Shown one piece after another: positions 1-37,272 of a stretch of 64,000 nt of DNA. This DNA is from a virus. Under the pieces are notes generated by a model. The model ran no database searches and was not told the DNA's origin. It saw only the letters and a program-made list of their open reading frames with translations. A program made the translations under genes and the position numbers. The number at the start of each line of letters is the position of its first letter. Positions within the stretch are counted from its first letter, which is position 1. Location of the stretch: the IMG/VR virus record IMGVR_UViG_3300020048_000110; one strand, written 5' to 3'.

Positions 1-3000
1 CAAAATTAACATTTGAAGCACCAAATGAAAGTTTAGTATTCTGTAATTTTTTCAACGATACATACGAAGATTGTTCAGAAAACCCATTTGAAGGAATGGT
101 AGATGATAACGGATTTCCTATATGCAACACCCCAACAATAATAGGTACAGAATTAGTGGTATCAAGGGTAGTTGGAGAACAAACTACAAAAGTAGAAAAA
201 GTATTCCCTACGGAATATACAAGAATAACTACACAAAAGGGTTGCAACTTATATAAGAAAGATCCTAAGACAGACGATTTTATACAAGATCCGACTAACC
301 CATTAGGGTATGATCCAGACGCACCAATAGGTAGTCCTGCTAAACCAACTCCAATACCAGTATATTTAAGAGATTCTGATTTTACTAATGAAAATTGCAG
401 TTACGCTTCAGATATAACACAAATTGCAAAAGTAACATCAAATACCGCAATAGGATATTTCAACAACTATTACTTCGAAGATATAGCAAAAGAACTGCTC
501 ATAAACAAGACAGCTACTTTTGTAGATTATGTAGAAGAAATTACTTTTAAAGACGCAACTCCTGGACCAACTTCCGGAGATTTAACTGTAACTATAGGAG
601 TCTCTACATTTACACAAACCTATACTACAACCCCAACAGCATCAGCTTTAGCATTTTTTACAGCACATAAAGCCGCTATAGAAACATTAACAGGTGGAGT
701 TGTAACTATTTCTGGTCCAAAGGTAACTATAACCGATTCTACTCTTGCATATGTAGATTCTGTGATCACTACAGGTAACTTAGAGTATGAATTTAAAACC
801 AACGGTGGATTTACCAAAAAAATACATAAAGGGGCCCTTTGGTTCAATTTAGATTTTAACGGTAAAACAGACTTAATATTAGATATAGCTAAACAAAAAG
901 ATTCAGAAGGAGATGACGATATTTCTGTAGGAAGCCAAGTAAGAATTTCAATTTTTAAAAGCTGTTCAGATTCAAACGCAATATACAGCAAAGTTATAGA
1001 TTTAAATAGCCCTAGTATATACAAGATAAAAAAAGCTTCTAGTACATCATTAAATTTAGTTATTGAAGATGAAACAACAGGCTTAACACCAATAGTTATA
1101 ACTAATGGATGGAATCTAACTGAAAAGTATTATATAGCAGTAGACTGTCCTTTAGTAAAAACAGAAATAGATACAGATCCATTAGGAGTACAAATTACTG
1201 GAGGAATCCCACCCACATATACATATAACCGAGACTTTAAGGATGTATTCTATACATCACCTACAGATGGATGTTACACAATAACAAAAAGAGCAGTAGA
1301 GATAAAAAGAATAGATGTTACCTGGGATTCAATAGAGCTTGTAAAAAATATTAAAATGCAAGCTACCTGTACATTAAAACAACCAATACTACAAAACTGT
1401 AAAGCTATAGCCTATAGAAAAGGAGATTTTGCATATTGGGAAAGTACAGAAACTTATCCAGATAATAATGAACTTTACAATTCATCACTATTAGATATAA
1501 AACCGGCTGATCTAAGTGGGTTAACTATAGAAGAAATAGCAAAGTTTGAAAGTACTTTTACTGATGGTATAGAATTAGATGGAAATTATAAATGGAAAGA
1601 ATCTGAAAAAATAGAAGGAGATATATCAAGTTTACAACCAGTTGTTGACTATACTTGTAGACCGATAAGACACTTTAAATTTCCAGATAATAAAATTGCA
1701 CCATATACATACAACTCTTTACAAGTAAACTTTAATAAATCTGCTATTTTTCCATTAGGTATAACTTTGAATGAGAGTGTGATACTTAAATTTTTAGATG
1801 TAGCTGTTAAGAATGAGCTACTATCTTCAGAAGACAGAAATAAGATAAAAAGTTATGAAATTTTTAGAGGAGATCTTAATTTAAATAGAAGTATTGTAGC
1901 ATCTGGAATACTGTTCGATATGCGTAGTTACAAGGAAAATGAGAAGGATGTATTATATACAAACTATCCTTTTAACTCTTATTCAGATGACAAATTTAAT
2001 TTAGATAGTAGTAATAAGCCACTAGTAACTCCTAATTTTGGAGAGAGTAATTATAACTATACTTTCCATTCTCCAGAGACAGATTACTATAAACCAACAA
2101 TTCCTTCAGAACTATCTATACAAGGTTTCCTATTTGGAAACTCAAGAGGTAATGTAGAAGAAGTATTAAAGCATCCAAAATGGGTTATTTTAGGAGATGT
2201 AGCTAGATCTGATGCAGGTGATTTAGCAACGCTAGAGGTTTTTGCAGAAGTAACTATAATAATAGCTAATGCAGCTATACAAGCTTCTCATACTTATGAA
2301 ACTAGCTTTTTTGCTTTTGTAGCAGGAGCAGGAGGAGCTGCATCAACAACTTCAAATATAGCAGGAGCAACCACTTCTGGTATAGCTTTAGGAGCAATAG
2401 CTTTTCTTGAAATAGCAGAATCTGTTGTATATAAATGGGGAAAGTATAGATATGAGTGGCTTAAAATATTTAGAGATCTTGGAACTCCAAATAATTTTGC
2501 ATACTACTATCATGCAGAAGGCTTTTACAACTTTTTAAGAAATGATATACATACTGAAGGAGATAGTTTAAGAGGTTTAAATATAACCAAGTACATAAAA
2601 GACGCAAGGTATACTACTTTAAATGAAGTTACTCCAGAATCTATCACGATAAACAATATTGATAGAGAATATTCTGTATTTTTATCAACAGGAAAAAACA
2701 ATAGTATATCCTACCCGGACTACTACAAAAAATACGATAGCCTTCCAAATAACTCTAGTATTACATATTTAGGAGAAAATGGCATAGCGTCATCAAAAAA
2801 GAGTCCAGAAATAGTTAAACCAATTGCTTCACCATATGTACATTTAAAAAACTACATACCATCACAACATGGAACAATAAACTCTATAAAGTGGTTATCT
2901 ACTGGATTTAGAAGTAATTTTAATAATACTGGATGTTTATCTATTTTTGGAGGAGATACATATATTTCAAGACATACAGTTAAAAGGAAAAAACCTCAGT

Positions 3001-5003: not shown

Positions 5004-8000
5004 ATGCCAATAGATAGAGAAGAATATTTAAGAAGGATAAAAGCCGCAGAAAGCGGAGGAAATCCTTATGCTAAAAGTCCGTTAAGTTCAGCATCTGGAC
5101 TTTACGGGTTTACAAAAGGTGCTTTTGAAGGACTAGGTTACAAGTGGGAAGACAGATTCAACCCTAAAGTACAAGAAGAGGCAGCAAGAAAACTTACAGA
5201 CCAAACTTATAACTACCTACAAAAGAAAGGTATTAAGGACCCAACATTTACAGATTTGTATGGAGCACATTGGTTTGGACCACAAGGCTACACAAAATTA
5301 GCTAGTACTCCAGACAACACGAGTATAGCAAACGTATTTTCAAGTGGTGTGTTAAAAGCAAACCCTAATCTGCTTAAAAAAGACGGTACACCAAAAACAG
5401 TAGGTGAAGTAAAAGGACTAATAGCACAAAAAGTAGGTGGCCAACCAACACAAGATAACTCTTCAATTGGCTATACAGACTATACGTTAGGGCTAGCACC
5501 TTTGCCTGGACAAATGGCAGGGTACAGAAGAGATGTAACTGAAGAAGTTAGTAATGATCCTTTTTCAAAATTAGCAGAAAAGCAACAAGAAGAAGATTTT
5601 ACAAACGAGGTTAGACAACAACAAGAACAACAAGAACGACCACAAGTTCAACCTAATCCACTATACGCTGCAGAGAACTACCAACTACAACAATTCCAAC
5701 CTACACAATACCAAGGACAGATTTTTTCTGAGGGATTTTTCCAAGAGGGTGGTATAAAAGGCAGTACTGGAAATAACCCAAAAAGATACAATGAATTAAT
5801 TATTGATACAAGTAATAAACAGGTAATGGATACCTTAAATAAGAAGTTCAATACCTTACATTACAAAAGTAAAATGTCATGTACTGCAGGATCTTTAAAT
5901 TGCTTAACTGATTTTGTGCAACCTATATTAAATTCAGACTCTGTTAGAACCTTGACACAACAAAATACTAGCAAGTATAAGATTCCAAGTAAACCTTACT
6001 CTTGGATTGGAGATACATATGTACCTAACAATTCAATAGATGCATGGGAGATACATAGCCAATTATCTGGAGAAGGTTTAGGAACTAACTTAATTAATCC
6101 TAAAAGTAAACTAACATACAAGAAAGATAAAAAAGGCACTAATATAAGTCAAATACCAGATCAATTAGACTATAAGAACTTACCTGTTGGTACAATTTTA
6201 GGACAAGGTGACAGTTCAAATGCCTATACAGACCCTAAATACGGCACTAAATCAAGACATGCCATGACTATAATAGGTTATGATAAAAAAGATGGTGAAC
6301 CTTTAGTCTATGACTACGGTGAAATAAGAAGACTATCTGATAATACAGGTATTTTAAAAAGTGCTCCTATAAACAATGTTACAATACCTAAAGGATATGA
6401 GAAATACACAATGGGTAATTTAGTAAGAGAGTATAATAATTACTCAACTAAATTAGGGTACGGTAAAAGTGTTCCTGTAAATTATAATTCAAAAAAAGAA
6501 CACATCCTAGCAATTCAAAATGGTGTTAATGATGTTAAAGATCAAATAGGTTTTGATTATAATATACCACAAACTGTAATAAATAAAATGGCACTTATGT
6601 TGCCAGGACTAGCATACCAAGAAACAGGTATTAACAACAATGAAAAACTTACTAAATCCGCCATAGCTGACAATATAGTAGGAAACTATGTAGGTAAACC
6701 TGGATTGAAAATCATAAAAAATACAGCTAATTTTATTGGTAATACATTTAAAGAAGAAGGCTCTAGAAAAAAAGGATATGAGTTAGAGATAGAAGCTTAT
6801 AAAAAGTATCCTAATGATCCGGCAAAAAGAAAAGCATACCAAAATCAATTAATAAATGAGAATAGTAATTTAAAAAATACTAACTACGAAGAGTTAACAT
6901 CATCTGTAGGACCATTCTCTGTTAAAAATATCCCTGCATATTCTGAAAATAAGCTGAAGGTTAAAAAAAGCGACATGTTTGGTGTTGATTTCAGCAATAA
7001 GTCAGAGTTAAAAAACGGTTCAAAAGTAGCCTTAAACATTCTAGCAGAAAATTATGCTAGAGCAAAGAAACAAAATCCTAATTTAGATCCAGATGAGTTA
7101 ATTGATTTAAGCTTAGCATCTTATAATAGTGGATCTAAATTAAAAGATAAGCGTTATATACAGTATTTTATAAATAAAGATACACGCACACTTAACGACA
7201 CATACTTAGAAAAGATTAAAAACTTTAAGTTACAAGATGGCGGAGAATGGTTTGGAGAAACTGTATTTGAAAAAGAACAGCCTCTAATGGCCGCTAAAGA
7301 TACCCAAGAGTATCAAGATGCAATGACAGGTATGATGAAGTCTAAAATAGGTATGGGTAACGCTTTAGGTAGCCCATCTATTAAAAGGATGTCAAGAGCT
7401 ATGCCTAAGACAGGCATGACTCCAGAAGGTATGGGTACACATTATATGGGATCTGTTGATAATTATGCTAGACCATTTTTACAAGATACAGGAAAAGATC
7501 AACTAGAATATTTTGAAAATCCAAGACCTTCTAGAGAAGACATTAGATTTAATTCTCCAGAAGAAGCACAATACTTTGCAGAACGTTACAAAGAAGTGGC
7601 ACCTATGTCTACAACTTACAGTGGTTTACAAGAATATCAAGATGGTGGATTAAAAGCTAAAGCCGATAGAGCATACGCTCAAGAAATATACGATCAAATA
7701 CGCCCTAGTGACTATACATCACTTAATAACTATGCTAGATATATTTTTAGTGTAAAACGTGATGATTATGATGATGCAAGAAGCGAGGAGGCATTTAAAC
7801 AATACTTAGGTCTAAATGACAAACCGAAGTATTTAAGTCCATCAAAATACGCACCGTCAATAAAAGCAAAAGGCAAAGAGGGTGAATATTATAGAGTAGA
7901 CCCAGAATTAGAGAACGACATATTTCATTCATACAAAGATAAAGTAAAATTGAATGAAGTAGTTCCAGTAGATGAGATCAATATAAAAAGTGAATGGCCT

Positions 8001-9062
8001 GTAGGAACACCTTTAACTCAGGATGGATATGTAAAATTAGATCCTTATGATGATAACATAATCGTTGGTAGACCAATGGCAAGTAGAGCAAGGATGTTAG
8101 GTAGATTTACTGTAAGTAGAGGAAAAGATAAAAAAGGAGAATACTTATCATACTCTGATCAATATGACTTTCCAGATACATTTCAAAATAAAATGAAAGG
8201 GAAGCCATACAATGTTTACAATAGGATCTACTACAAGGACATGAAACAGATGGGTGGTACAATTGAAAACAACGAAAAGTCTTTTTTACAAGAGTACCAA
8301 GTAGGTGGGCCATTTAGCAAAGCAAAAACAAAAAAGGTTAAACCTTACAACTCTAATAAGATAGAGAAAAGTATAATGGATAACCTAGGGGTAAATGACT
8401 TTAGAGATAGTGTAGAAGAAGAAGCAGAAAAACAAGGCATAAGCGGAGTACATAATGGAGGCTTAGACGCAATAAGACACGCATCTTCTGCCGCAAAAGT
8501 TTCATCACAAATCCCACTTGGCCTTGGAGTATTATCAGCAAACGTATTAGGTTTAATTCACGAAATATCTCCAGAGAGTAATTGGAGAGAAACAAAATCA
8601 GATTTGTATAATAATTTTGCAGGAAGTTTAGTAGGCGGTATTCCTTTTATAAGTGACAAAACTAGAAGTAACATACTAATAGAAGCACAAAAAAGAGGAT
8701 ATTTGAGCGATTTAGGAGAGAAAGATGAACCTTTAAATACAAAAAGACCTACTTTAAAAAAGAAAAGTGAAGGAGGTACTATCACAGATAATGAAAAAGC
8801 TTTCTTACAAGAATTTCGACAAGGAGGTACAATACCAGTATCAAGCAATGGAGTTTATGATTATCCCGGACAAGAAGTTATCGTACCAACTAACTCTGGT
8901 AGAATTACCATGAAAAATGTACCCTACGATATTTTAGGTATAGATGAATACGGTAATCAGCAAATGATGCAATCTAACGGTGAATACCAATATCCAGGAA
9001 AAATTATACACGAGATACCACAAACAAAAAAGAAAATTTCAATAAAAAGTAAATTAAAATGA
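5004..9062 (+). CDS. Giant internal or ejection protein with an N-terminal lytic transglycosylase (SLT-like) domain
   Basis: Residues 15-40 read AESGGNPYAKSPLSSASGLYGF, which fits the SLT family ES..N..A.S....GLMQ signature. Two internal copies of GGTI(E/T)(N/D)NEK(S/A)FLQE. The ATGA overlap links its stop to the next ORF. Confidence 0.6.
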   Translation: MPIDREEYLRRIKAAESGGNPYAKSPLSSASGLYGFTKGAFEGLGYKWEDRFNPKVQEEAARKLTDQTYNYLQKKGIKDPTFTDLYGAHWFGPQGYTKLASTPDNTSIANVFSSGVLKANPNLLKKDGTPKTVGEVKGLIAQKVGGQPTQDNSSIGYTDYTLGLAPLPGQMAGYRRDVTEEVSNDPFSKLAEKQQEEDFTNEVRQQQEQQERPQVQPNPLYAAENYQLQQFQPTQYQGQIFSEGFFQEGGIKGSTGNNPKRYNELIIDTSNKQVMDTLNKKFNTLHYKSKMSCTAGSLNCLTDFVQPILNSDSVRTLTQQNTSKYKIPSKPYSWIGDTYVPNNSIDAWEIHSQLSGEGLGTNLINPKSKLTYKKDKKGTNISQIPDQLDYKNLPVGTILGQGDSSNAYTDPKYGTKSRHAMTIIGYDKKDGEPLVYDYGEIRRLSDNTGILKSAPINNVTIPKGYEKYTMGNLVREYNNYSTKLGYGKSVPVNYNSKKEHILAIQNGVNDVKDQIGFDYNIPQTVINKMALMLPGLAYQETGINNNEKLTKSAIADNIVGNYVGKPGLKIIKNTANFIGNTFKEEGSRKKGYELEIEAYKKYPNDPAKRKAYQNQLINENSNLKNTNYEELTSSVGPFSVKNIPAYSENKLKVKKSDMFGVDFSNKSELKNGSKVALNILAENYARAKKQNPNLDPDELIDLSLASYNSGSKLKDKRYIQYFINKDTRTLNDTYLEKIKNFKLQDGGEWFGETVFEKEQPLMAAKDTQEYQDAMTGMMKSKIGMGNALGSPSIKRMSRAMPKTGMTPEGMGTHYMGSVDNYARPFLQDTGKDQLEYFENPRPSREDIRFNSPEEAQYFAERYKEVAPMSTTYSGLQEYQDGGLKAKADRAYAQEIYDQIRPSDYTSLNNYARYIFSVKRDDYDDARSEEAFKQYLGLNDKPKYLSPSKYAPSIKAKGKEGEYYRVDPELENDIFHSYKDKVKLNEVVPVDEINIKSEWPVGTPLTQDGYVKLDPYDDNIIVGRPMASRARMLGRFTVSRGKDKKGEYLSYSDQYDFPDTFQNKMKGKPYNVYNRIYYKDMKQMGGTIENNEKSFLQEYQVGGPFSKAKTKKVKPYNSNKIEKSIMDNLGVNDFRDSVEEEAEKQGISGVHNGGLDAIRHASSAAKVSSQIPLGLGVLSANVLGLIHEISPESNWRETKSDLYNNFAGSLVGGIPFISDKTRSNILIEAQKRGYLSDLGEKDEPLNTKRPTLKKKSEGGTITDNEKAFLQEFRQGGTIPVSSNGVYDYPGQEVIVPTNSGRITMKNVPYDILGIDEYGNQQMMQSNGEYQYPGKIIHEIPQTKKKISIKSKLK

Positions 9063-25332: not shown

Positions 25333-25364
25333 TTTGGTAATTACAGAAATAATCCATAAATTTG
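25333..25364 (+). promoter_or_regulatory. Bacteroidetes-type sigma promoter upstream of the 2014-aa ORF
   Basis: TTTG at 25333-25336, a 20-nt spacer, then TAAATTTG at 25357-25364. Confidence 0.55.
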
Positions 25365-28300: not shown

Positions 28301-31300
28301 GATAACTATCTCTCACTACAAGAAAAGCAATTTATAGCATCTCAAAAAGAGTTTGAAAAAAGAATGGTTAGAGAAGCAATAAAAGAAGCATCTCTATCAG
28401 GGGCCACAGAACTCCGTTTTCCTACACCATATACCTTGAGTGTTATTGAGGGATACCTATCAGAAAATGGTGGCATGCCTTATGAAATAGAAAGTGCGGA
28501 AGATAGTAGTCGTTTAGAATCTGGTGACACAATTTACTATGCAGGAGAAGAATACACTGTATTAAATTCTTGGTATGAAAATATAGAAGTAGCACAAACT
28601 AGCTCCTTATATTCAACAGAAATAGATTCTTTTATAGAAGAACAAGTTAGTTCTGAAGTTGATGAAATTATGGACTACGGACTTGATGTTGATATTACAA
28701 AATTTTATACCCAAGAAGAGTGGGACAATGAAGATAAATATCGTGCACTAGAAGACACACAATTAGAAGATTTAGGAAAAGAGATTGAAGACGGTGTATA
28801 CGAATTATCAGAAACTAAAATAAGAAATTTAATAGAAGAGGATAAGAGAGATTACTACAATTCAGAGAGTATAGAAAGTATACTCGAAGATATGGGATAT
28901 GAGAATGTAGTTGTAAAGGGAGATACCGCATATTACACACCATACGGAACATCAACAGAAACTTTTGGACAACCTGATACATACGATAATGAAAGCGACA
29001 AAGAATCTTTTACTATAGAAGGCAGCCTAGATGACACACAACAAACAGTTGCTCGTAAGTACGAACAAATTGCTAAAATTCTAGAACAAGAAAGAGGAGA
29101 AGATAACTTTGAGATAATTACAGATGACAGTGGTTTTGATTGGTACTCAACAAAAATAGATCCGAGTGAAACAGACAACCCTGTAGTAGCTTTCCAAAAA
29201 CAAGAAGAAAAACCAACTGTAACCTATAAAAACTCTAAAATATATTCTGCACAAAGAACAAATCCTATTACAGGAGAGCCAACTGGAGAAATAGAATTAA
29301 AAACAATAGAAACTGATAAATTATCTAGAGGTAAAGGTCAAGCAAGAGCAGCTTTAAAGGAATTCCTTAATTATACAGACGCTATAGGAAAAGATGTTTA
29401 TTTAGTAGTTACTCCTAGAGATAGCAGTACTAGATTCACTAGCCTAGTAGACTTTTACAAATCTGAAGGTTTTGAAATGGAACCTACAGAATTCGAAATG
29501 GTAAGGAAAGCAAAACGTGTTAAGGCAGCTAATTTTGATGTTAATGGAGAACCAGATATAAAAACTGTTCTAGACTTTTCTAACAGAAGTAGTGATGGAC
29601 TTACCTCAGAAGAGAAAGTACAAGCCATGAATTTCTTAGTTAGTACAGGATTAAAAACTTCTACAGAACTTCTTTCTAAGCTAGAAGATACGTTTTTCAA
29701 GAATGGTCTATTTGTAGCTAACAAAGTTAAGATGTCTAAAAGCGGATTATACAACAAGTTTGAAATATCTGAAATTACACAATCTCCTATTTTACAGAAA
29801 GAGATAAAAGAATTAGTACTTGCACTTAGGAATACAGAAGAGATGTCAATAGATTATGACAGCAAATTTGTAAAAGGCGAAACTACCAGTTTAAATAATT
29901 TTGGAAAACAGACAGTATCTAATCCTTACATCTTAGAAAAGGAAATTGCTACAGAAATCGCAGGAGTACCTTTAGAGGATGTAAGACAGTACTTATCTTC
30001 TGATATGTCATCTAAATATAAAACTGATTCTGCTTTTAAAAAGGTAGTAGATAGAATTGCTACAGAAAATAAATTAGCAAGTGTTAAGAAGATAGTTAAT
30101 GGAGAATTAGTAGATAAAACTTCAGATACTTCTGAAAAACTAAACCTTACTTTAATAAAAGAAATAGATCAAGAGTTATTAGAAAAGTTATATTATCTGA
30201 CAAACTCTATTTCTGAAAACGTATGGAATCAAAACTTGGATTTAGTATCTAAGTCAATAGAAGATGTATCAAGTTTAGCTAAACAAAACGGTATAGATTT
30301 TTCAAACTTATCTACAAAAGTATATAGCATACCAAGACAAGAAGTAGTAAATTTACTGAACTCTTTTGTAGAGCTAGTTGCAAGTGAAGATAGTCAGAAT
30401 TTAGAAGAGTTTTCTAGTTTATATGACAACATGTTTGATACAACTCAGCCACAAAAAGAGTTGATTAAAACAGATAGTGAATTCGATGTTGTATTAGATA
30501 CTAATTTATCAGAGCAAGAATTATTTTCTAGTTATGATTTAGTAAAAAAAGCAGATGGTATCTACAGAAAAATAGACCCTACTACTTTAGACGATTTATA
30601 CGACTCTTTCTTCAACTATAAAAATTTATTCCCTAGCAGTATAGCTGATATAGAACAATTAAAAAGCTACGTACAAGAAAAGTCTATAGACAACGTAGAA
30701 AACGGTTTTTCTATAGAAGAGGGAGATATGGAGAAAATGTGGATGTACAAAAAGTTCTTTAACTTTCCGATGAATATTTCAAAAGAAAGAGTAGAAGTAG
30801 AGAGGACTAAAAATATAACCCTTGATTCTGAGTATCTGACCGGGGATTTTATAAAAGATTTCAATGTGTACTTACTAGAGTCTGGAAACAAGTATTTCAA
30901 AGTTACAGAAAAAGGTATTGAATTAGAGAATAATGATCCAATATCAAAAGAGGAAGCTAAATTGTCTCTTTCAGAAGAACTAACAGAAGTACTAGCTCAA
31001 TACGATGCGTTATCTAGACATTTAAATTTAGGATTAGAATCTAAGTTGGATACCTATGAAGATTTTAACACTGAAAACGCACAAAGAGTTAACGCTGTAA
31101 ATAACCCTGATTCTGTGCCTAAATTAACTGGAGAGTATACTTATGTAGAAGAAGGCATTTTAGCAGCTAAGAATGAAGCTAATGCGTTTGTAAGGACTCC
31201 AGTGGGGGTATTTGAATTAGTCTATGAAGTGAACAATGTAAAATTCTTCAATAAACTTCCAGATGCAGATCCTAACTACAAATTGTACGAGTTAGAAAAG

Positions 31301-31429
31301 CCACTAACAAATGTAGATTTCAACAATTACTTCTACCTACAAAATTCAGTAGAAGTGTTCAAAGAGGCTAAAAAGAATTATAATAAAAAAGAATTAGAAA
31401 AAATCAATAAAGATTATTTCGACTGTTAA
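25385..31429 (+). CDS. Giant multi-domain protein, 2014 aa, with a zincin HExxH motif and a GNAT-like motif. Candidate ejected effector
   Basis: HEFQH at residues 416-420 (nt 26630-26644). RGKGQARAAL at about residue 1313 (nt ~29321-29370) fits the GNAT motif A (Q/R)xxGx(G/A). FFHGTT at residues 201-206. Confidence 0.45.
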   Translation: MAIECRILRNEYGEIDHVIANNGERSELFDNLVDISGGNKDTALDLYALTETEEFKELTELKSNEERVKFLKEFQKEKPFFGKDVKFQKTEIKKTAITPEEQKQEIINQLKKTGLAGNVFEMSNDEIESKLQEIGVDSEVAKQVSKYHKSRLFVPNVRGGWTKEKIVKYFKSKSSQTVTDYGIIQMISEFDSFDDFKKNVFFHGTTNFIEKGLKPSITMSERDAERYGGGGYGERYFGISLTKDKKIAESFSGTSSSVKVYPVILKKDAKVINREDLQDASDVEDIIVELYEQGVDAVWIGGGEQELVVVNPYAVSLYKNGSESFQVYGGFKSVQPTDKKLSQIFNKAKKEAVGLEKEFNSISGKENKDTFLSNIGKTQFSKNLSEKGIGVTTSGFTFKGDVYLNNESATENTSIHEFQHLHLDYLKENRKQVYEQGLSLIQNELALGENSEIKDVIDFVNSTQPDLTGEKLHNEILTELLGRKGLDLIEETKDTVKKGGILEWLKNVWADIKSMWGISKMSNSEVKKLTLGKYVRAMNIDILGGEKLIGDQAQEYFARNADRLPLTLSVFRRPEFIKLQGKEINPITVLNSLNQTGIKQIEKELIKNVIEKNYQGQNKISYDELEATVRANIMPLERIFTTSYSDYGMERLSDGNYGEATTIILNSPIDHGIVGHFSGSFVTSGRKNIKYMPKQLNGSTWVAVEEGYESQANDNNIYQFVGTAGTKEAVDEWISKYKNPNNLLSIDDKSLIIEVSEVSQSTKEQFPDSDIVDVQLLRNGEVLKTSRRMLRNSEENMRANIIDNYNIEKDSLSETTINKGMFGHIRVWQDGDIFNVAELQSDYFQKSNAKKEIVPNAPEYTKKLIELQSKYKKIAVENLRRIGITTREEALTSLNLSTPLQIRRAVEAKTIIIDKNSEIQKLLDTIEEGLKSNDIEVRRQIDKDVSRVIEIVGKNPDITSNDSYIKELNQLKDNYLSLQEKQFIASQKEFEKRMVREAIKEASLSGATELRFPTPYTLSVIEGYLSENGGMPYEIESAEDSSRLESGDTIYYAGEEYTVLNSWYENIEVAQTSSLYSTEIDSFIEEQVSSEVDEIMDYGLDVDITKFYTQEEWDNEDKYRALEDTQLEDLGKEIEDGVYELSETKIRNLIEEDKRDYYNSESIESILEDMGYENVVVKGDTAYYTPYGTSTETFGQPDTYDNESDKESFTIEGSLDDTQQTVARKYEQIAKILEQERGEDNFEIITDDSGFDWYSTKIDPSETDNPVVAFQKQEEKPTVTYKNSKIYSAQRTNPITGEPTGEIELKTIETDKLSRGKGQARAALKEFLNYTDAIGKDVYLVVTPRDSSTRFTSLVDFYKSEGFEMEPTEFEMVRKAKRVKAANFDVNGEPDIKTVLDFSNRSSDGLTSEEKVQAMNFLVSTGLKTSTELLSKLEDTFFKNGLFVANKVKMSKSGLYNKFEISEITQSPILQKEIKELVLALRNTEEMSIDYDSKFVKGETTSLNNFGKQTVSNPYILEKEIATEIAGVPLEDVRQYLSSDMSSKYKTDSAFKKVVDRIATENKLASVKKIVNGELVDKTSDTSEKLNLTLIKEIDQELLEKLYYLTNSISENVWNQNLDLVSKSIEDVSSLAKQNGIDFSNLSTKVYSIPRQEVVNLLNSFVELVASEDSQNLEEFSSLYDNMFDTTQPQKELIKTDSEFDVVLDTNLSEQELFSSYDLVKKADGIYRKIDPTTLDDLYDSFFNYKNLFPSSIADIEQLKSYVQEKSIDNVENGFSIEEGDMEKMWMYKKFFNFPMNISKERVEVERTKNITLDSEYLTGDFIKDFNVYLLESGNKYFKVTEKGIELENNDPISKEEAKLSLSEELTEVLAQYDALSRHLNLGLESKLDTYEDFNTENAQRVNAVNNPDSVPKLTGEYTYVEEGILAAKNEANAFVRTPVGVFELVYEVNNVKFFNKLPDADPNYKLYELEKPLTNVDFNNYFYLQNSVEVFKEAKKNYNKKELEKINKDYFDC

Positions 31430-31435
31430 GAAGAG

Positions 31436-31466
31436 AGGCTGTCAAAAAAAGGCAGCCTTATCTTTT
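31436..31466 (+). terminator. Rho-independent terminator after the 2014-aa ORF
   Basis: Stem aggctgtc / ggcagcct (8 bp with one G-U pair) around an aaaaaaa loop, followed by tatctttt. Confidence 0.6.
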
Positions 31467-31524: not shown

Positions 31525-34500
31525 ATGAATTGTACAATTAAGTTTAATAAAGATAGGAGCATATACAATGTACTTACTCCAGAAGGAAAAGAAAGTAGGC
31601 TATTTAAAAGCATAGCTAAACTTCCACATGTAAATAATTTAGAAGAGGCGTTAGAACTGTTTAAGAATGTATATTCAGATGCTGTAAAAAAAGATGCAGT
31701 GGAACCTATTTTAGCATTTAAATCTGATAAAGGTGTTTCTGCTAATTCTTATAAAGAAGCTCTTAAAAATTCTTCAGGTGGAGATATTCAAATAGGATTA
31801 GATAGCCCAGAAAAAGGCTTTGTTTCTATTTTAGCAGTATCATCTAATACAAACCCATCTACAAAAGAAGGTTTTATAAATAATATGATCTCTGAAGGGA
31901 TTATGTCTGATGAAAAACTTATACAAGATGGTAAGTCTTATCATAAAGCTGCAGGTAATGACCAAAAATTACAATTGGCCAATGAGGTAGTGATGTATAT
32001 AGAGGGTCTAGAGAGTTTAGGTAAAAGTGGTATTAGTATAGCAAAAGATGGTAGAGTCGAAATAAGTGATAAAATCAAATCTGTTACAGTAAATGGTGTA
32101 GACTTAACCATAGAAGAAATAAGAAGTTCATCTTATAGAGAACTTGTTGAAAAAGTAGGAGAGCCAGATGCTTTATCTTTAGCAATAAACAACGCAACAA
32201 AATCTGTAATTGACACAAAATTAGAGACTGAGAAACTCACAGTAAATGATAAAGACCTAAAACTAAAGCTTTTAGATTTACTAAAAAAGATGAATGTCTC
32301 TACAATGTCTATAAATGACTACGTTAAGAAGTTTACAGACAAGAATGGAGTAGAACCTTCTGCAGCAGCTTTGGTAGATATAGCGAACCAAGTAGTAGCT
32401 TTTAGAGATGGGGTTATCGGATTAGAAGACTTGGCAGAAGAAACTGTACACTTCGTGGTAGAGACTTGGGACCAAGCAGAGATTGAAAACTTAGTTAGAA
32501 ACGCACATAAAACTGATGCTTACAAGGAATTTTCTGCAATATATAGAGATATCTATACAAGAGAAAATCCAGGAATGACAGAAGTGGAAATTGAAAACTT
32601 AGTTAGAAGAGAGATTCTAGGAAAAGAGTTGGCTAAATCTTTAAGAGAGAATTTCAATTTAGAAGAAAAAACAGAAATACAAAAAAGTATTCTTCAAAAT
32701 TTATTTGATAGGTTTGTAAACTTCTTTAGATCTTTAATAGTAGAAGATAGTTTTTACAAAGACTTAGCTAATCTATCTACTAAAGTTCAAGATTTAGTTT
32801 TAACACAAGACATTTCTAAGTACCTTGATTTGAATCAAGCAGCTACAAAGAAATTTAGAATGTACAACCAAAATAGTGGTGATCCAGCTATAGATACTAA
32901 ATCAGTAGTAGCCAAGCAGTTAGTTTCAACACTGTTAGAACAAGAGAAAAACCTTAGAGCCACAGGTAGAGGTTCAGCAGCACAGATACAAAGGTTAAAC
33001 ACCCTAGCTACAAAAGCACTTACTGCAAACTCTACATTAGAGATTTTAAAATTAGCAAAAAGACAAGCTAGATACATAGAGGAGTCTATTACCTCTGCCA
33101 CTAAAAAAGGTAGAACTCTTAACAACGAAGAGTCTATTGTATTTGAAGGATTGAAAGAACATGTTGCACCTCTTTTAGAAAGACTAAAAGTTATAATTAA
33201 AGATGATGCAGAACTTTCAAACTTATATCCAGATATCGAAAAAGTATTGTCTGAAATTGGGTGGGTAAAAGGTAAAGTGTTAGATACAGAAAATCAAATT
33301 TTAGAAAGTATCATTGATAGGATTATAGTTAGGGATAACTTACCAGAAACTATAATGGAGGATGGAAGAGAAGTCAACGTTAGATCTAGACTTTTAAATT
33401 CTATTAGTAACGCAACTAAAGACACCAATTACCTATATGCTTTATATGGACAACTTACACATGCTAGTGACCCTTTATTGGGTGCATTGGGATCTGTCAT
33501 ATCAGATATGTCAGTTATTGCTTCACAGAATTTTAATACTAGAGCAAAAACTTTTCAAAAGAAAATAAGAGAATTAGGTTTTGATGAAAAAGATCTATCT
33601 TCTTTTTATGACAAAGATGGGTATATTTTAAGCATGTATGATTGGAGTAGGTTTGAAGAAGATATCAATCAAATTAAAGCAGAAGAATACAAAACTATAA
33701 CTGGCAATACATCTTCTATTGAAGAGTTAAAAGTTATGGTTAAAGCTGGAACACTTCCAGAAATAGCCGATTCAACACAAGCACAAGAGTACCAAAACTC
33801 TGTAACTAAAAAGACTAATGAAAAAATCGAAAGAAGTTTTACAGAAGAATTTTATGAGCAAAGAGAACAAAGGTATAAGGATTTAGGTATATCAGAAGCA
33901 ACTAAAATAGAATTAAGACTTTTAGGTATTGACCTTGGACAAATTATCGCTAGATCAAAAACTGAAGATGGTAAAGTAAAATACTCTTTTCAAGATAAGT
34001 ATGATTTAGATGGTTACAACCTAAAAAGAAAAAGACTTAAATCTCTTTATGACGAATTCGGAGAACTAAAAGCAGGGATAGAAGTATCTGATTTTGCAAC
34101 CCAAGACAGCTTAGAGATAAACGGACAGTTTTATTCTCTTATACCGGGAACACCTAATGAAGAAGCCATTGTAGCAATGGACATAAATAAGCTGGACCAA
34201 AAAGTATTAGAAGAGAAAAAGGCCGAAGCTTTAAGATCTGGATTTAGTGTAGATACAGAAAAACTTTCTGCAAACTTCTTGAAAGAGTTAGAGAAAATAG
34301 AAGACGGAGGAAACAGAGAGGAAGCCCTTGAGTTTTTCATGATGAATACAACAGTTGGTTTTTCTAACAACTTCTGGAACAATTTTGACAATTCTACTAC
34401 CTTCTCATCTGTAATAGATAGAGTAGAAAAAGACAGTAAGACTGAAATGGATACGCTAATGGCGATCTCTACATTCAAAAAATACAGTAACCAAAGAAAA

Positions 34501-37272
34501 GCTATTTTAAAACAATATCAAGATTCTAGGAACTATACTAATACGATGGCAGAAGAAATGCCAGAGAATGTAAAACTTGAAGTTATAAGACTATCTGAAG
34601 ATATTGATAGACTGTACAACGGTTTGTACAACAAGTTTAAAGATGAACTTCCAGAAAGAGATGTTGAAGTACCCCTAGCTTACGAATCAAAACCTAATCA
34701 AGCTTATTACGAAGCATTAGATGACGAAAGAATAACAGGAGATAAGGAAAAGGAATATGATTTTATTCTGAAGCATGTAACTAAAGATAACAAACAAAAA
34801 ATAGCTAATTTTTCTGAAGCTATTGGTCTTTTAAGAAGAGGAAGATTCTTGACTGAATCACAAAGGTTCATGATTGAAAATGTTACAGGGCTTGCTGCAG
34901 AAGAGATTTTACCAGAAGAATTTGATAACATTAAGTTAGATTATGCTAAAAAGAAATTGGCTCCTTATTACAGAGCTTTTTCTCCAAAAGGTATAGAAGA
35001 GTTTTACGACAAACTTAAAAATTCAGACGAAAATATTCTTGATTTAGCAAAAGAGTTAAATGAGAATGAGAATGTAAAACTAAGTAATAACTTTTCTTAC
35101 TATGAAGTTGGTGAGGTAAAATTCAAGAATAAGAATTACATAGATAGTTTTGAGGGAGGAATGAAACAACCAAAACTAAAACAGTACTTAAACCAAAAAT
35201 TTGTAGATACCTTTGGTCCAATATTAGATGTAGAGAATAACCCTATCCTTAAAGATGGAGAAATTCAAGTAACTAAGAATCAAAAAATGTACGATCTATA
35301 TAAAGAGTATATCTCTTTCCAAAAAGACACTATGAAGTCTTATAAAGAAGAGAACATGCAAAATATATATTTAGCACCACAAGTTACTAGAACTGGAATG
35401 GAGAGAACAGAGAAGTTCTTGAAGGATGAAAACAAGGCTAAAGTAGTAAAAGATATTTGGAAAGATATAACTCAATATAGAGTTGACGAACAAGTGTTTG
35501 GAGAAGAGGTTAACGGAGAGTCTTTGATTAAAAAATCTGGATTTAGAGTTATACCTAAATACTTCTTAAAGAAACTAGAAGATAGCTCTTTTGTTTCTAC
35601 AGATTTATTTTATAGTTCTATGTTAATGGCACAACAATCAGAGTTGTATAAAGCCAGAAGAGAGAAGTATTCAGAGTTTGCTACCTTACATGATAAAGTA
35701 TTATCTAGAAGTTATCCAAACGGTAAAGCAGCTTCTTCTACTAATACGTACAAAATGTTTAAGTCTTTCTTAGATAGTAACTTATTCGGTGTTGTAGAAT
35801 CAAGACAATGGAGGGTAGATTTGCCAGTAATAGGACAAGTAGATATGTCAAAATTAATTACGGTTTTACACAACTGGGTTAAAAATACATCTTTGGCTTT
35901 GAACCCTATTATTCCATTTACTTCTTGGCTTACCGCAGAATCTCAAATTTTAATGGAGAGATTGATAGGACAGTATGTAGATAAAAACTCTATGAAAAAG
36001 GCAAACAGTGAACTTAGAAAAATTTCAACTGCTGCTGTAAAAGAGAATCTTGAAATTAATTCTACTTCTAGATTATCACTATTAGGAGAATGGTTTGGAG
36101 TATTTGATTTGAAAAATAGATATGAGAACTCTAAGTACAGTAAGACTACTAGATTTTTAGGAAAAGCAGGTTATGCAATGCATACTGCAGGTAACTTCTT
36201 ACCTCTTTCAAGAGTTATGTTGTCTGCACTGTACGGAAATAGAGTTTACAAAGGAAAAATAGTAGATTTTAATTCTTTCTCTAGATTATCAAAATTAGAG
36301 AATAAAAATGCATCAGATAAAGATATCGAAATTGCTTGGGAATCAATATCTGACAAAGCTATATACAACTATCTACAAACTGATAGTGGAGTAGTAACTT
36401 ATAACTATGATCAATTAGCTACTGATATGGGTAGAGTAAATGATGACAAGTTTAAAGAAGATTTCAAGAATATAGAGTTAGGAGTAATGTCTAAGATCAA
36501 AAAGATAGTAGAAAGAGTAGACGGTCAAATCAAAGAAGAGGAGAGAACTTTATTACAAAGGGATGTACTTGGTAGATTTACCATGACACACAAAGGTTGG
36601 ATGTCAATCGCTTTATCAAACAGGTTAAAGAATAGACATATCAGTTTTGCTACTGGAGATGTAGAAGAGGGAAGTTATAGAACTCTATTAAGAGTTATAA
36701 AAGAGTCTGTAAATAAAGGAGTATCACAAAAAAGCTTTTCAGCTTCTATCAAGAATATTAGAGAAGCTTATTCTGGTGCACAAACAGAACTTGAAAGAAC
36801 TAACCTTAGAAGAACACTTATAGAATTTTCTTTCTTACAAGCATTATTCTTAGTCAGTTTAGCTCTAGGTAAATGGGCCGATGATGACAAAGACGAGGGA
36901 GTAGCAGGATGGACTGCACAAATGGTAGCCTACTTAGCAGAAAGAACCGCTAGTGAAACATCTTCTTCTCAATTCGGAGTATCTGGAGAGATCTACAAGA
37001 CTATCAAAGAACCTCTAGTAGGTTTAAACAAAATAGAAAACCTTGTAAAAGTAGGAAATCTATTTGATTTTGATACTATCCAAACAGGTCGATTTGCAGG
37101 ATTAACAAATAGCCAAAGCTACTTAATTAAAAACGTAGTTGGACTTAAATCTTTTTATGACTTAGCTAATGCTAAAAATTTAAGATCTTTACGAGATACA
37201 TACGACTTTTTCGATGATCAAGAGATCTATACTTTAATAGCATCATTTATAGATGAAGAAGATTTAGAATAA
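31525..37272 (+). CDS. Giant hypothetical structural or ejected protein, 1915 aa
   Basis: Long ORF with no recognisable motif. It is the last gene of the + block. Confidence 0.5.
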   Translation: MNCTIKFNKDRSIYNVLTPEGKESRLFKSIAKLPHVNNLEEALELFKNVYSDAVKKDAVEPILAFKSDKGVSANSYKEALKNSSGGDIQIGLDSPEKGFVSILAVSSNTNPSTKEGFINNMISEGIMSDEKLIQDGKSYHKAAGNDQKLQLANEVVMYIEGLESLGKSGISIAKDGRVEISDKIKSVTVNGVDLTIEEIRSSSYRELVEKVGEPDALSLAINNATKSVIDTKLETEKLTVNDKDLKLKLLDLLKKMNVSTMSINDYVKKFTDKNGVEPSAAALVDIANQVVAFRDGVIGLEDLAEETVHFVVETWDQAEIENLVRNAHKTDAYKEFSAIYRDIYTRENPGMTEVEIENLVRREILGKELAKSLRENFNLEEKTEIQKSILQNLFDRFVNFFRSLIVEDSFYKDLANLSTKVQDLVLTQDISKYLDLNQAATKKFRMYNQNSGDPAIDTKSVVAKQLVSTLLEQEKNLRATGRGSAAQIQRLNTLATKALTANSTLEILKLAKRQARYIEESITSATKKGRTLNNEESIVFEGLKEHVAPLLERLKVIIKDDAELSNLYPDIEKVLSEIGWVKGKVLDTENQILESIIDRIIVRDNLPETIMEDGREVNVRSRLLNSISNATKDTNYLYALYGQLTHASDPLLGALGSVISDMSVIASQNFNTRAKTFQKKIRELGFDEKDLSSFYDKDGYILSMYDWSRFEEDINQIKAEEYKTITGNTSSIEELKVMVKAGTLPEIADSTQAQEYQNSVTKKTNEKIERSFTEEFYEQREQRYKDLGISEATKIELRLLGIDLGQIIARSKTEDGKVKYSFQDKYDLDGYNLKRKRLKSLYDEFGELKAGIEVSDFATQDSLEINGQFYSLIPGTPNEEAIVAMDINKLDQKVLEEKKAEALRSGFSVDTEKLSANFLKELEKIEDGGNREEALEFFMMNTTVGFSNNFWNNFDNSTTFSSVIDRVEKDSKTEMDTLMAISTFKKYSNQRKAILKQYQDSRNYTNTMAEEMPENVKLEVIRLSEDIDRLYNGLYNKFKDELPERDVEVPLAYESKPNQAYYEALDDERITGDKEKEYDFILKHVTKDNKQKIANFSEAIGLLRRGRFLTESQRFMIENVTGLAAEEILPEEFDNIKLDYAKKKLAPYYRAFSPKGIEEFYDKLKNSDENILDLAKELNENENVKLSNNFSYYEVGEVKFKNKNYIDSFEGGMKQPKLKQYLNQKFVDTFGPILDVENNPILKDGEIQVTKNQKMYDLYKEYISFQKDTMKSYKEENMQNIYLAPQVTRTGMERTEKFLKDENKAKVVKDIWKDITQYRVDEQVFGEEVNGESLIKKSGFRVIPKYFLKKLEDSSFVSTDLFYSSMLMAQQSELYKARREKYSEFATLHDKVLSRSYPNGKAASSTNTYKMFKSFLDSNLFGVVESRQWRVDLPVIGQVDMSKLITVLHNWVKNTSLALNPIIPFTSWLTAESQILMERLIGQYVDKNSMKKANSELRKISTAAVKENLEINSTSRLSLLGEWFGVFDLKNRYENSKYSKTTRFLGKAGYAMHTAGNFLPLSRVMLSALYGNRVYKGKIVDFNSFSRLSKLENKNASDKDIEIAWESISDKAIYNYLQTDSGVVTYNYDQLATDMGRVNDDKFKEDFKNIELGVMSKIKKIVERVDGQIKEEERTLLQRDVLGRFTMTHKGWMSIALSNRLKNRHISFATGDVEEGSYRTLLRVIKESVNKGVSQKSFSASIKNIREAYSGAQTELERTNLRRTLIEFSFLQALFLVSLALGKWADDDKDEGVAGWTAQMVAYLAERTASETSSSQFGVSGEIYKTIKEPLVGLNKIENLVKVGNLFDFDTIQTGRFAGLTNSQSYLIKNVVGLKSFYDLANAKNLRSLRDTYDFFDDQEIYTLIASFIDEEDLE

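Follow-up and report, generated by a model that had tools for sequence, protein, structure and literature searches.

The question raised by this locus was what nine consecutive giant genes on one strand encode, and whether they include the injected RNA polymerase that is part of what defines crAss-like phages. The window was the whole 64,000-nucleotide stretch analysed from the IMG/VR record IMGVR_UViG_3300020048_000110. Bases 1-37272 were 99.2% filled by nine plus-strand ORFs (G1-G9), which confirmed the earlier note's description of nine giant one-strand ORFs occupying more than 95% of 37 kb and interpreted there, by comparison with Bacteroidetes podoviruses, as a module of virion proteins or ejected cargo. 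The nine genes were:

1..4925, + strand: G1, muzzle (tail-tip) protein by homology to phi4:1 gp042 and the crAssE-Sib muzzle protein; 5' end cut off by the window edge
5004..9062, + strand: G2, 1352 aa, predicted ejected peptidoglycan-degrading protein (SLT/transglycosylase profile and PDB matches)
9059..11611, + strand: G3, 850 aa, presumed ejected protein
11592..13397, + strand: G4, 601 aa, homologue of phi4:1 gp040 (virion protein)
13460..16159, + strand: G5, 899 aa, one cysteine, homologue of phi4:1 gp039 (virion protein)
16161..22343, + strand: G6, 2060 aa, gp47/gp67-type cargo protein, first of the "train" (BLASTP homology)
22343..25318, + strand: G7, 991 aa, SF2 helicase cassette (Pfam and PHROG profiles)
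25385..31429, + strand: G8, 2014 aa, predicted polyvalent effector (domain map, AF2/Foldseek, homologue domains)
31525..37272, + strand: G9, 1915 aa, gp49/gp65-type cargo protein, last of the "train" (BLASTP, hhalign)

Very probably the nine genes form the distal part of the late (structural) gene array of an Epsilon crAss-like phage with a Bacteroidota host and encode ejected cargo as proposed, without an RNA polymerase. By protein homology this marine phage is related to Cellulophaga phages phi4:1 and phi17:2 (Lightbulbvirus); the TerL, portal and capsid genes lie outside the window. Six of the nine proteins (G1, G4, G5, G6, the G8 C-terminus and G9) matched, in order, the MS/MS-verified virion proteins gp042, gp040, gp039, gp038, gp037 and gp035 of phi4:1; no phi4:1 counterpart was detected for G2, G3, G7 or the first 1400 aa of G8. 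The cargo reading was further supported by matches of G6 and G9 to crAss001 gp47 and gp49, which lie within the gp45-gp50 set of virion cargo in that phage (Bayfield 2023, PMC10172136), and by the match of G1 to the crAssE-Sib muzzle protein. Virion presence is known for homologues in phi4:1, phi14:2 (MS/MS annotations) and crAss001. Virion packaging of the block proteins is suggested by these homologues, which are 24-42% identical; for the proteins and the G8 segment without a phi4:1 counterpart we infer packaging only from gene position, the structure of the operon and the content of cysteine. A megablast search with 25 kb of the sequence as query, covering 50,697 phage records, gave no nucleotide-level match.

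Replication and nucleotide-metabolism genes adjoined the block on the minus strand, convergent with G1-G9, including DNA polymerase A, DnaB, RNR, thymidylate synthase and tRNAs, and the strand switch after G9 was seen in both GC skew and ORFs. This phage module, the six-gene collinear synteny with isolated phages, and the lack of relaxase or T4SS genes in the window all oppose the view that the region is part of a conjugative element or a polymorphic-toxin locus and not of a phage. That view has next to no chance of being correct, although polyvalent proteins are commonest in such elements with domains common to both (Iyer 2017) and the origin of many G7 and G8 relatives is not established.

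Bacteroidota-type promoter-like sites were over-represented (14 observed versus 4.8 expected), while a sigma-70 promoter scan gave no enrichment (70 found versus 71.6 expected). The sites and hairpins associated with the block were:

4930-4961, + strand: Bacteroidota-type promoter-like site, TTTG-N-TAnnTTTG, overlapping the G1 terminator hairpin
4961-4987, + strand: G1 terminator hairpin, overlapping the promoter-like site above
13411..13442, + strand: Bacteroidota-type promoter-like site upstream of G5
25333..25364, + strand: Bacteroidota-type promoter-like site upstream of G8
31437..31466, + strand: terminator-like hairpin GGCTGTC-A7-GGCAGCC with a T-rich tail, 3' of G8, read from sequence
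37280..37312 (approximate), + strand: terminator-like hairpin with a T-run, 3' of G9, read from sequence

The last of these hairpins marked the end of the plus-strand block, and the Bacteroidota-type promoters would be read by the host RNA polymerase.

The ORF of G1 was open to base 3 and covered at least 1640 aa in the window of a full length of about 2250 aa. It shared 42% identity with phi4:1 gp042 and, across 1200 aa, 36.5% with the muzzle protein of crAssE-Sib, and matched PHROG 37948 with 1072 bits; PDB searches with G1 alone and with a three-sequence profile returned nothing meaningful. Homology shows G1 as the muzzle protein, predicted to close the tail. The SLT-like N-terminus previously noticed in the 1352-aa protein proved to be a phiKZ-gp144-type lytic transglycosylase domain of G2 (aa 6-145, nt 5019-5438) with matches to Pfam SLT (3e-4), PHROG transglycosylase (2e-14) and PDB entry 3bkh (phiKZ gp144, E 1e-8, the sole match in the PDB search). 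A possible papain-like peptidase followed at aa ~290-440 (nt 5871-6323; Pfam Peptidase_C39_2, 0.016), and the only two cysteines of G2 were residues 293 and 300. G3 was cysteine-free and of low complexity, with two Q/E-rich UBA-like repeats at aa ~670-800. G4, also cysteine-free, matched phi4:1 gp040 (E 4e-60), PHROG 36695 (2.6e-54) and a 946-aa structural protein of crAssE-Sib (E 4e-31). Thin profiles of G2-G5 showed no similarity to crAss001 gp45 and gp46, phi14:2 gp68-70 or phi4:1 gp041.

BLASTP with G6 recovered phi4:1 gp038 (2e-91), crAss001 gp47 (4e-15), IAS gp058 (1e-12) and phi14:2 gp67 (1e-7). The SF2 helicase that had been recognised from motifs in the 991-aa protein was borne out in G7 by Pfam ResIII, Helicase_C and Helicase_C_4 and by PHROG DNA helicase profiles, the core lying at aa ~340-930 (nt 23360-25132). 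Most of the G7 relatives (n=694) were located within polyvalent proteins of 2000-5400 aa, and the free-standing homologues P0248 and P0249 kept both terminal cysteines. A sequence search of the PDB with G7 gave nothing meaningful, and no methyltransferase was found in G6-G8 with Pfam or PHROG.

G8 was divided into the following regions:

aa 1-56 (nt 25385-25552), + strand: N-terminal Cys domain
aa ~155-320 (nt 25847-26344), + strand: ART-like domain (AF2 model and Foldseek)
aa 375-550 (nt 26507-27034), + strand: zincin HEFQH domain
aa 560-1275, + strand: near-orphan region of about 700 aa
aa 1276-1380 (nt 29210-29524), + strand: minimal GNAT
aa 1390-2014 (nt 29552-31426), + strand: conserved C-module of about 620 aa, matching phi4:1 gp037

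The HEFQH domain and the minimal GNAT, whose nearest structure was the anti-CRISPR AcrVA5, accounted for the zincin and GNAT-like motifs that had been reported for the 2014-aa protein. The most conserved G8 domain (aa ~155-320) was without a Pfam model, and its ART-like fold was a weak match (E ~1e-2, TM ~0.3); its profile found nothing meaningful in the PDB. Identity with Pfam ART-PolyVal (PF18760) was considered and rejected as this model had no match to G8 at E up to 1 and, in homologues, the conserved domain adjoins and does not overlie PF18760. ART-PolyVal, LPD23, LPD3, MuF_C and Kinase-PolyVal were carried by G8 and G9 homologues along with RadC, NUDIX and Topo I, and by homologues of G7, G8 and G9 together along with GNAT and others. 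G8 combines at least two effector or catalytic domains in one polypeptide, the hallmark of polyvalent proteins, and polyvalent-type domain shuffling with Pfam PolyVal and LPD families was found in the G8 and G9 homologues. The slot between the G6-like and G9-like genes varied among relatives, and minimal G8 relatives (517-686 aa) had little beyond the N-terminal domain and the C-terminal module.

G9 included three regions of interest:

aa 1-55 (nt 31525-31689), + strand: N-terminal Cys domain
aa 305-309 (nt 32437-32451), + strand: variant zincin site EETVH
aa 1281-1876 (nt 35365-37152), + strand: gp65-like C-domain

G9 was 28% identical to phi4:1 gp035 over its full length and matched crAss001 gp49 by BLASTP (3e-11), while hhalign related its family to gp65 (98.9%, E 2e-17) and to IAS gp057 (99.3%). 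Residues E305, E306 and H309 were invariant in 39 sequences, with EETVH in place of HEIMH. G9 relatives were found on contigs of 120-156 kb, set beside the roughly 145-150 kb expected of a Lightbulbvirus-like genome, and neither G9 alone nor its family profile gave anything meaningful in the PDB.

These domain assignments bear on whether the giant ORFs could encode, in place of ejected cargo, ordinary fibres on the outside of the tail or a ruler of the tape-measure kind. Their large size and position downstream of tail genes would suit such proteins, and the phi4:1 annotations say just "structural protein". However, homology to ordinary tail-fibre or tape-measure families, which the earlier note had named as a refutation, was looked for, and Pfam and PHROG gave no match to any family of fibre, collagen, beta-helix or tape-measure proteins. 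The helicase, GNAT, ART-like and zincin domains would work inside cells, the homologous crAss001 proteins are assigned to internal cargo zones, and the cargo proteins are extremely depleted in cysteine in contrast to the muzzle protein G1, in which 16 cysteines represent a normal content. External fibres or a ruler are highly improbable, and ejected cargo is the reading retained.

The absence of a visible virion RNA polymerase, also stated previously, survived profile and fold tests. A two-barrel polymerase with DFDxD was not found between G6 and G9 by motif, profile-profile or fold search, none of the nine proteins matched the RNA_pol family (N4-type, T7-like single-subunit) in Pfam or PHROG, and PDB searches with G1, G7, the G8 C-module, the ART-like domain and G9 gave no match to phi14:2 gp66 or crAss001 virion chains. 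As candidate polymerase sites, DFDTD of G5 (aa 518) was rejected because the motif is missing from phi4:1 gp039, and NDFDKD of phi4:1 gp038 was not conserved in G6. These negative tests show that the gp66-type slot holds the SF2 helicase G7 and the polyvalent G8 without a polymerase; a gene for one could lie beyond the window. The group Epsilon, in which phi17:2 is placed, has been described as missing the transcription block (Yutin 2021, PMC7886860).

A virion RNA polymerase present in the G8 C-module, G5 or G6 but too divergent to see is very unlikely. It would fit the position of G8, which occupies the slot of gp66, the presence of DFDTD in G5, and the name "DNA-dependent RNA polymerase" under which the crAssE-Sib homologue of the G8 C-module was published. 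An HHpred value of 95% was reported between the 752-aa crAssE-Sib protein and phi14:2 gp66 (Babkin 2024), and the 752-aa protein is homologous to G8 residues 1383-1528. The G8 C-module was nonetheless rejected as a polymerase by profile and fold tests, and its profile found nothing meaningful in the PDB, although its model had a pTM of 0.42 so that a distant fold match could have escaped.

The cargo without a polymerase shared an unusual arrangement of cysteines. G6-G9 (6980 aa) contained six cysteines in all, every one terminal:

G6: a single cysteine, the last residue
G7: exactly two cysteines, residue 4 and the last residue
G8: exactly two cysteines, residue 5 and the last residue
G9: a single cysteine, residue 3

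The cysteine ends match along the gene order, with the first protein having a C-terminal cysteine only, the middle proteins both and the last an N-terminal one only. The terminal-cysteine rule also applied to phi4:1, phi14:2 (the crystallised polymerase included), crAss001 and Suoliviridae; the gut relatives IAS virus and Suoliviridae kept the terminal cysteines and had internal ones too. A cysteine was present within residues 2-6 in all 89 of the G9-family homologues checked, and an N-terminal domain of about 55 aa was common to the G8, G9 and gp66 families (hhalign 97%, 92% and 79%).

We tentatively propose, as a conjecture open to considerable doubt, that disulfides join the giant cargo proteins of crAss-like phages head to tail, from a C-terminal cysteine to the cysteine at residues 3-6 of the next protein. 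The sequence pattern suggests the links G6-G7-G8-G9 here and gp67-gp66-gp65 in phi14:2. Quite conceivable, if rather doubtful, is that there is no chain and that the terminal cysteines are relics of ancestral polyprotein processing sites or have separate roles at each terminus, for instance in binding a metal, in anchoring the protein to the portal or to the interior of the capsid, or as sites of acylation. Each N-terminal cysteine does lie within the conserved 55-aa domain, which could bind something else. Against this, C-terminal and N-terminal cysteines match in number along the gene order; this recurs across more than 10 lineages and also in crAss001, whose genes lie on opposite strands. 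The junctions of the natural fusions P0230, P0231 and P0233 are without any cysteine, so that a cleavage site there can do without one. No prior description of disulfides or cysteines in crAss cargo proteins was found in a literature search of incomplete coverage; MS samples in both reduced and non-reduced form were acquired in Bayfield 2023.

In the mechanism we propose, the capsid or the lumen of the tail would house G2-G9, which would be driven down the tail before the DNA; their largely unfolded state during passage may be the reason for their near-absence of cysteine. G2 would cut peptidoglycan and G3-G5 would help in building a trans-envelope conduit, while G6-G9 would pass to the cytoplasm, where the helicase, ART, zincin and GNAT domains may act on host or defence targets. 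The terminal cysteines would most likely join G6-G7-G8-G9 by disulfides into one threadable chain, to be split by the reducing cytoplasm. If so, a linear pseudo-polyprotein threads the tail in fixed order and reduction in the host frees separate enzymes, and the slot between the gp67-like and gp65-like proteins becomes a plug-in position for any cassette keeping both terminal cysteines, be it an RNA polymerase, a helicase or a polyvalent effector.

The window shows how one deep crAss-like branch manages without the polymerase while both partner proteins are kept, and the "transcription block" becomes a more general "cargo slot". Four findings go beyond the earlier note: the Epsilon/Lightbulbvirus-related lineage, the recognition of G8 and G9 as polyvalent proteins, the ART-like domain and the pattern of terminal cysteines. 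The ART-like domain, zincin and AcrVA5-like GNAT are named as candidate host-takeover or anti-defence enzymes. The cysteine rule spans marine Epsilon phages, crAss001 and the crystallised phi14:2 polymerase and bears on a question raised by the crAss001 structure, namely the ordering and narrow-tail passage of megadalton cargo. Extreme cysteine depletion may also serve as a cheap sequence marker of translocated phage proteins.

The comparison with crAss-like phages, N4 and P1 Dar suggested earlier held by homology for the crAss-like phages, failed for the N4-type polymerase, and for P1 Dar stood only as an analogy because no methyltransferase is present. P1 DarB, a methyltransferase-helicase, offers the parallel of a helicase-containing protein delivered from the capsid, with a presumed role in protecting the incoming DNA or preparing it, but no homology was shown, and neither G7 nor its neighbours contain a methyltransferase. 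Podovirus ejectosomes (T7 gp14-gp16; N4 gp50-52; P22 gp7, gp16 and gp20) also deliver proteins ahead of the DNA, and T7 gp16 has, like G2, an N-terminal lytic transglycosylase on an ejected protein of about 1300 aa. There was no homology beyond the SLT fold (none between G2 and T7 gp16 outside that domain in PDB, PHROG or Pfam searches), the proteins here are far more numerous and larger, and the T7-like single-subunit polymerase of N4 has no equivalent here.

Polyvalent proteins (Iyer, Burroughs, Anand, de Souza and Aravind 2017) resemble G8 in its combination of zincin, ART-like and GNAT domains, and the helicase core of G7 is a standard module in them, whereas here the helicase has a gene of its own and the methyltransferase that usually accompanies it is missing. 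That study did not cover crAss-like or Cellulophaga phages and did not mention cysteines.

In the Steigviridae triad (phi14:2 gp67-gp66-gp65; crAss001 gp47-gp50-gp49), the catalytic virion RNA polymerase sits between gp47/gp67 and gp49/gp65, the counterparts of G6 and G9. Both systems have the N-terminal 55-aa Cys domain, terminal cysteines and giant, mostly helical proteins; here the DFDxD two-barrel polymerase is replaced by a helicase and a polyvalent effector, and the zincin motif is EExxH in G9 versus HExxH in Steigviridae.

The Epsilon phages phi4:1 and phi17:2 have the same order of muzzle, gp040, gp039, gp038, slot protein and gp035, the common terminal-cysteine pattern, no DxDxD polymerase, and a block convergent with the replication module. 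Relative to phi4:1, which has gp041 where the window has the SLT protein G2 and G3, the free-standing helicase G7 is an addition. The phi4:1 slot contains a protein of 517 aa and, besides it, only the 119-aa gp036, whereas the slot protein here reaches 2014 aa with its ART-like, zincin and GNAT inserts.

The nine consecutive giant ORFs (G1-G9) left only 304 of 37,272 bases non-coding, in line with the earlier note that they fill more than 95% of 37 kb on one strand, and the junction overlaps it listed were confirmed in the sequence. The block was collinear with gp042-gp035 of Cellulophaga phage phi4:1.

3-4925, + strand: G1, ORF, muzzle protein; counterpart of phi4:1 gp042
5004-9062, + strand: G2, ORF
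9059-11611, + strand: G3, ORF
11592-13397, + strand: G4, ORF; counterpart of gp040
13460-16159, + strand: G5, ORF; counterpart of gp039
16161-22343, + strand: G6, ORF, 2060 aa; counterpart of gp038; one Cys, the last residue
22343-25318, + strand: G7, ORF, 991 aa; two Cys, residue 4 and the last
25385-31429, + strand: G8, ORF, 2014 aa; residues 1399-1988 counterpart of gp037; two Cys, residue 5 and the last
31525-37272, + strand: G9, ORF, 1915 aa; counterpart of gp035; one Cys, residue 3

The phi4:1 counterparts gp042, gp040, gp039, gp038, gp037 and gp035 are each annotated as virion proteins from MS/MS, and PHROG families built on them matched the window proteins strongly. A nucleotide-level search of 50,697 phage records gave no match. 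Across its full length, G9 shared 28% identity with gp035 of phi4:1 and phi17:2, the latter a member of the 'Epsilon' crAss-like group with genomes of ~150 kb (Yutin et al. 2021, PMC7886860), and contigs bearing G9 relatives were 120-156 kb. The G1 frame was still open at base 1 of the window and its alignment to the 2289-aa phi4:1 homologue began only at homologue residue 548, therefore ~550-650 G1 residues lie upstream of the window. A 186-aa TTG-start ORF antisense within G6 (18794-19354, minus strand) is almost certainly a shadow ORF.

Matches of G1, G6 and G9 tied the block to CHARACTERISED crAss cargo. G1 and the crAssE-Sib protein listed as muzzle protein (Babkin et al. 2024) shared 36.5% identity across 1200 aa. 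G6 matched crAss001 gp47 (4e-15), IAS virus gp058 (1e-12) and phi14:2 gp67 (1e-7), while G9 matched crAss001 gp49 (3e-11) and also phi14:2 gp65, its profile of 39 sequences aligning with the C-terminal 600 residues of gp65 at 98.9% probability and with IAS gp057 at 99.3%. In crAss001, gp45, gp46, gp47, gp49 and gp50 have been assigned to internal cargo zones and cargo proteins were argued to need partial unfolding for tail passage (Bayfield et al. 2023, PMC10172136). The initial reading of the block as virion or ejected cargo was thus right, given collinearity with phi4:1 virion proteins and homology to crAss001 cargo, and the block adds to the crAss-type muzzle-plus-cargo modules a new form without a polymerase.

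Cysteines in G6-G9 were confined to the protein ends. Six were seen where ~88 were expected from the frequency of 1.26% in the other genes of the window (P about 3e-30); G2-G5 contained three in 3702 aa and the muzzle protein G1 a normal count of 16. The same layout was found in phi4:1 (gp038, last residue only; gp037, residues 4 and 516 of 517; gp035, residue 3 only), in phi14:2 (gp67, last residue only; polymerase gp66, residues 3 and 2179 of 2180; gp65, residue 3 only), in crAssE-Sib and in metagenomic relatives L006, L007 and L008. In crAss001, gp47 had a cysteine at residue 2339 of 2341 only, gp50 at residues 5, 1334 and 2404 of 2412 and gp49 at residue 5 only; gp47 and gp50/gp49 lie on opposite strands, therefore the layout is not a gene-junction artefact. 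The fused gp67-plus-polymerase giants (4400-4900 aa) of Suoliviridae cr6_1, cr118_1 and cr52_1 (L011-L013) ended in a conserved C-K-G-K/E and the next, gp65-like proteins opened with MIICPN, MICPN or MAKGICPN, i.e. M-(x)-I-C-P-N. The cr6_1 and cr52_1 giants carried 44 and 26 in-frame standard stops, consistent with the reported reassignment of stop codons in phages of this kind.

At family level, a cysteine occurred within residues 2-6 in 89 of 89 G9 homologues checked, at an overall frequency of 0.055% or about one per protein. G8-type proteins closed with YF-x-C, followed by no more than one residue (27 of 27 checked). Full-length gp66-type polymerases (~20) had exactly two cysteines, the first at residue 3 or 4 and the second 0-3 residues from the C-terminus, and both free-standing G7 homologues had exactly two, namely residue 4 and the C-terminal residue. 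Fusions of a gp67-like protein with polymerase (P0230, 3798 aa; P0231, 3540 aa) had one cysteine each, beside the C-terminus, and a polymerase fused to a gp65-like protein (P0233, 3663 aa) had one at residue 3; thus modules linked by a peptide bond lacked the junction pair, and which outer cysteine was present tracked the identity of the outer modules.

The simplest reading is that these proteins pass a narrow channel unfolded, so that internal cysteines would be counter-selected, and that terminal cysteines would pair C-terminus to N-terminus in a linear chain of cargo proteins cut by reduction. From the sequences this disulfide chain seems quite possible, if short of probable. The terminal cysteines could instead be processing-site relics, metal sites or points of attachment to another virion part, which seems only a little less likely; pairing is favoured by the way in which the cysteine positions of the first, middle and last proteins complement one another. 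Cysteine was entirely lacking from many giant helicase-bearing polyvalent proteins, among them several G7 relatives of 3300-5250 aa (P0250-P0262, e.g. 5249, 5097 and 4746 aa), and the mean over 150 helicase-bearing G7 relatives was 0.076%. Scarcity of cysteine may be a mark of translocated giant proteins in general. The terminal-cysteine rule went unmentioned in the preprint on phi14:2, in the papers on the crAss001 structure and on polyvalent proteins, and in wider literature searches, a coverage that is incomplete and leaves novelty unproven. Together with the general depletion it is the most interesting outcome and is directly testable on existing cultured phages.

By position and podovirus analogy, G2-G5 would be those members of the ejected set that breach the envelope. 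The SLT-like N-terminus noticed earlier in the 1352-aa protein G2 is a lytic transglycosylase (PDB 3bkh, E 1e-8), and residues 349-436, around the only two cysteines of G2, gave a weak papain-like or C39-like match. G4 and G5 matched phi4:1 virion proteins, and no link was found between G2-G5 and crAss001 gp45 and gp46 or phi14:2 gp68-70. G3 and G4 had zero cysteines. The low-complexity G3 contained two copies of a ~95-aa Q/E-rich repeat (aa ~670-800; window 11066-11459) with Pfam UBA matches in two stretches (E 5e-7). A motif [FYW][QKE]xGG occurred eight times in G2-G4 (5004-13397; 0.41 expected, 0 of 2000 shuffles), as FQEGG, YQDGG, YQVGG, YQEGG twice, FKEGG and others, and four times in phi4:1 gp040 (0.16 expected); none occurred in G1, G5-G9 or the cargo proteins of crAss001, phi14:2 and IAS virus. 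They could serve in processing or docking; the weak C39-like match in G2 is of the double-glycine peptidase type.

The window comes from a phage genome and has ~32% G+C, with a GC skew reversal at ~37.3 kb where the block meets a convergent module.

37385-64000, minus strand: replication and nucleotide-metabolism module, convergent with the giant ORFs
40648-42660, minus strand: DNA polymerase A
44465-45577, minus strand: DnaB-like helicase
55079-57704, minus strand: RNR large and small subunits
58143-58215: tRNA-Met
59915-60002, minus strand: tRNA-His call (ARAGORN), anticodon ATG, 88 nt
4930, + strand: Bacteroidota promoter pattern, intergenic, before G2
13411, + strand: same pattern, intergenic, before G5
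25333, + strand: same pattern, intergenic, before G8
38703-38733, 40011-40045 and 57775-57806, minus strand: same pattern, intergenic spacers

This module also encodes a dNMP kinase, thymidylate synthase, exonucleases (a 3'-5' exonuclease among them), a BT4734-like primase-related protein and the two tRNAs, and its gene order was common to the window, L005 and L006. The anticodon and length of the tRNA-His call are both atypical for tRNA-His, so that the call may be wrong or the tRNA may be modified or contain an intron. The promoter pattern TTTG-N17-23-TAnnTTTG was seen 14 times (4.8 expected; 0 of 100 shuffles reached 14), including intergenic spacers of both modules, and terminator-like hairpins followed G1, G8 and G9. 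The sigma-70 consensus was not enriched in the window.

Within the 64-kb window, neither motif nor hhalign profile gave evidence of an RNA polymerase in the block, and the earlier failure to see a virion polymerase motif in the nine proteins stands. No conserved DxDxD was found, profiles of G5, G6 and G7 gave nothing against the gp66 family, the G8 C-terminal family reached 0.5% hhalign probability against a 21-sequence gp66 alignment, and full-length G8 matched at its N-terminal domain only, a domain common to the G8, G9 and gp66 families (97%, 92% and 79%). A 752-aa crAssE-Sib protein (L002 8857-11115; crAssE-Sib 92650-94908), whose homology to G8 covers residues 1383-1528, where the C-terminal region begins, has been published as 'DNA-dependent RNA polymerase'. 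Its gp66 match was confined to residues 4-81, the shared N-terminal Cys domain, therefore the annotation probably stems from that domain rather than from a catalytic core. A transcription block with a DxDxD polymerase occurs in every crAss-like group except Epsilon (Yutin et al. 2021, PMC7886860).

The polymerase slot between G6 and G9 is occupied in the window by a helicase together with a polyvalent protein that combines ART-like, zincin and GNAT domains. G7 carried ResIII and Helicase_C domains and showed Strawberry-notch-like features, in line with the SF2 motifs first recognised in it, and its core was found again in 694 representatives, mostly polyvalent proteins of 2000-5400 aa. The G8 domain map was drawn from homologue coverage, and the zincin motif first spotted in G8 proved conserved.

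G8 residues 1-56: N-terminal domain
G8 residues ~155-320 (window 25847-26344): ART-like domain
G8 residues 375-550: zincin domain, conserved HEFxH
G8 residues 560-1275: region with only 2-3 detectable relatives
G8 residues 1390-2014: conserved C-module

The ~155-320 domain shared 45-62% identity with stretches of at least 75 other giant polyvalent proteins, where it adjoins ART-PolyVal or MuF_C without coinciding, and had no Pfam model, PHROG match or PDB sequence match. Its AF2 model (pLDDT 80) retrieved almost only ADP-ribosyltransferase folds (tankyrases, PARP13, PARP4, exotoxin A, RES toxin), weakly (E ~1e-2, TM ~0.3), so that the predicted fold looks ART-like; the invariant motifs R-G, Y-H-G-T/S, GGGGYG..Y and E-x-E fit an ART, and the domain may merit its own family model. 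Homologues of G8 and G9 carried ART-PolyVal, LPD23, LPD3, MuF_C, Kinase-PolyVal, RadC, NUDIX, Topo I and sliding-clamp domains and, judged by these predicted domains, are polyvalent proteins as defined by Iyer et al. 2017. In L005 (ENA contig k141_92815, 3886-9905) G7 and G9 were identical to the window and G8 was split into 654-aa and 1323-aa genes with ~40 codons altered or lost around residue 651-692, which could be a population variant, frameshift or assembly difference.

In phi14:2 the catalytic virion polymerase gp66 is flanked by gp65 and gp67, both in virions and in some phages fused with it as one polyprotein, and a zincin-like domain was reported in gp65 (Drobysheva et al.). The gp65 motif is HEIMH, whereas the corresponding site reads EExxH in G9 and in its Epsilon relatives, with E305, E306 and H309 invariant across 39 sequences. 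The slot was filled by a single 1616-aa G8-like protein in L006, a 561-aa minimal protein in L007 and a 686-aa protein followed by small genes in L008. The minimal slot proteins consisted of a ~55-aa N-terminal domain and the G8 C-terminal module, therefore G8 looks like this scaffold with ~1300 residues of inserts. Whereas the slot holds the polymerase in Steigviridae, it holds gp037 (517 aa) and gp036 in phi4:1, and G7 and G8 in the window.
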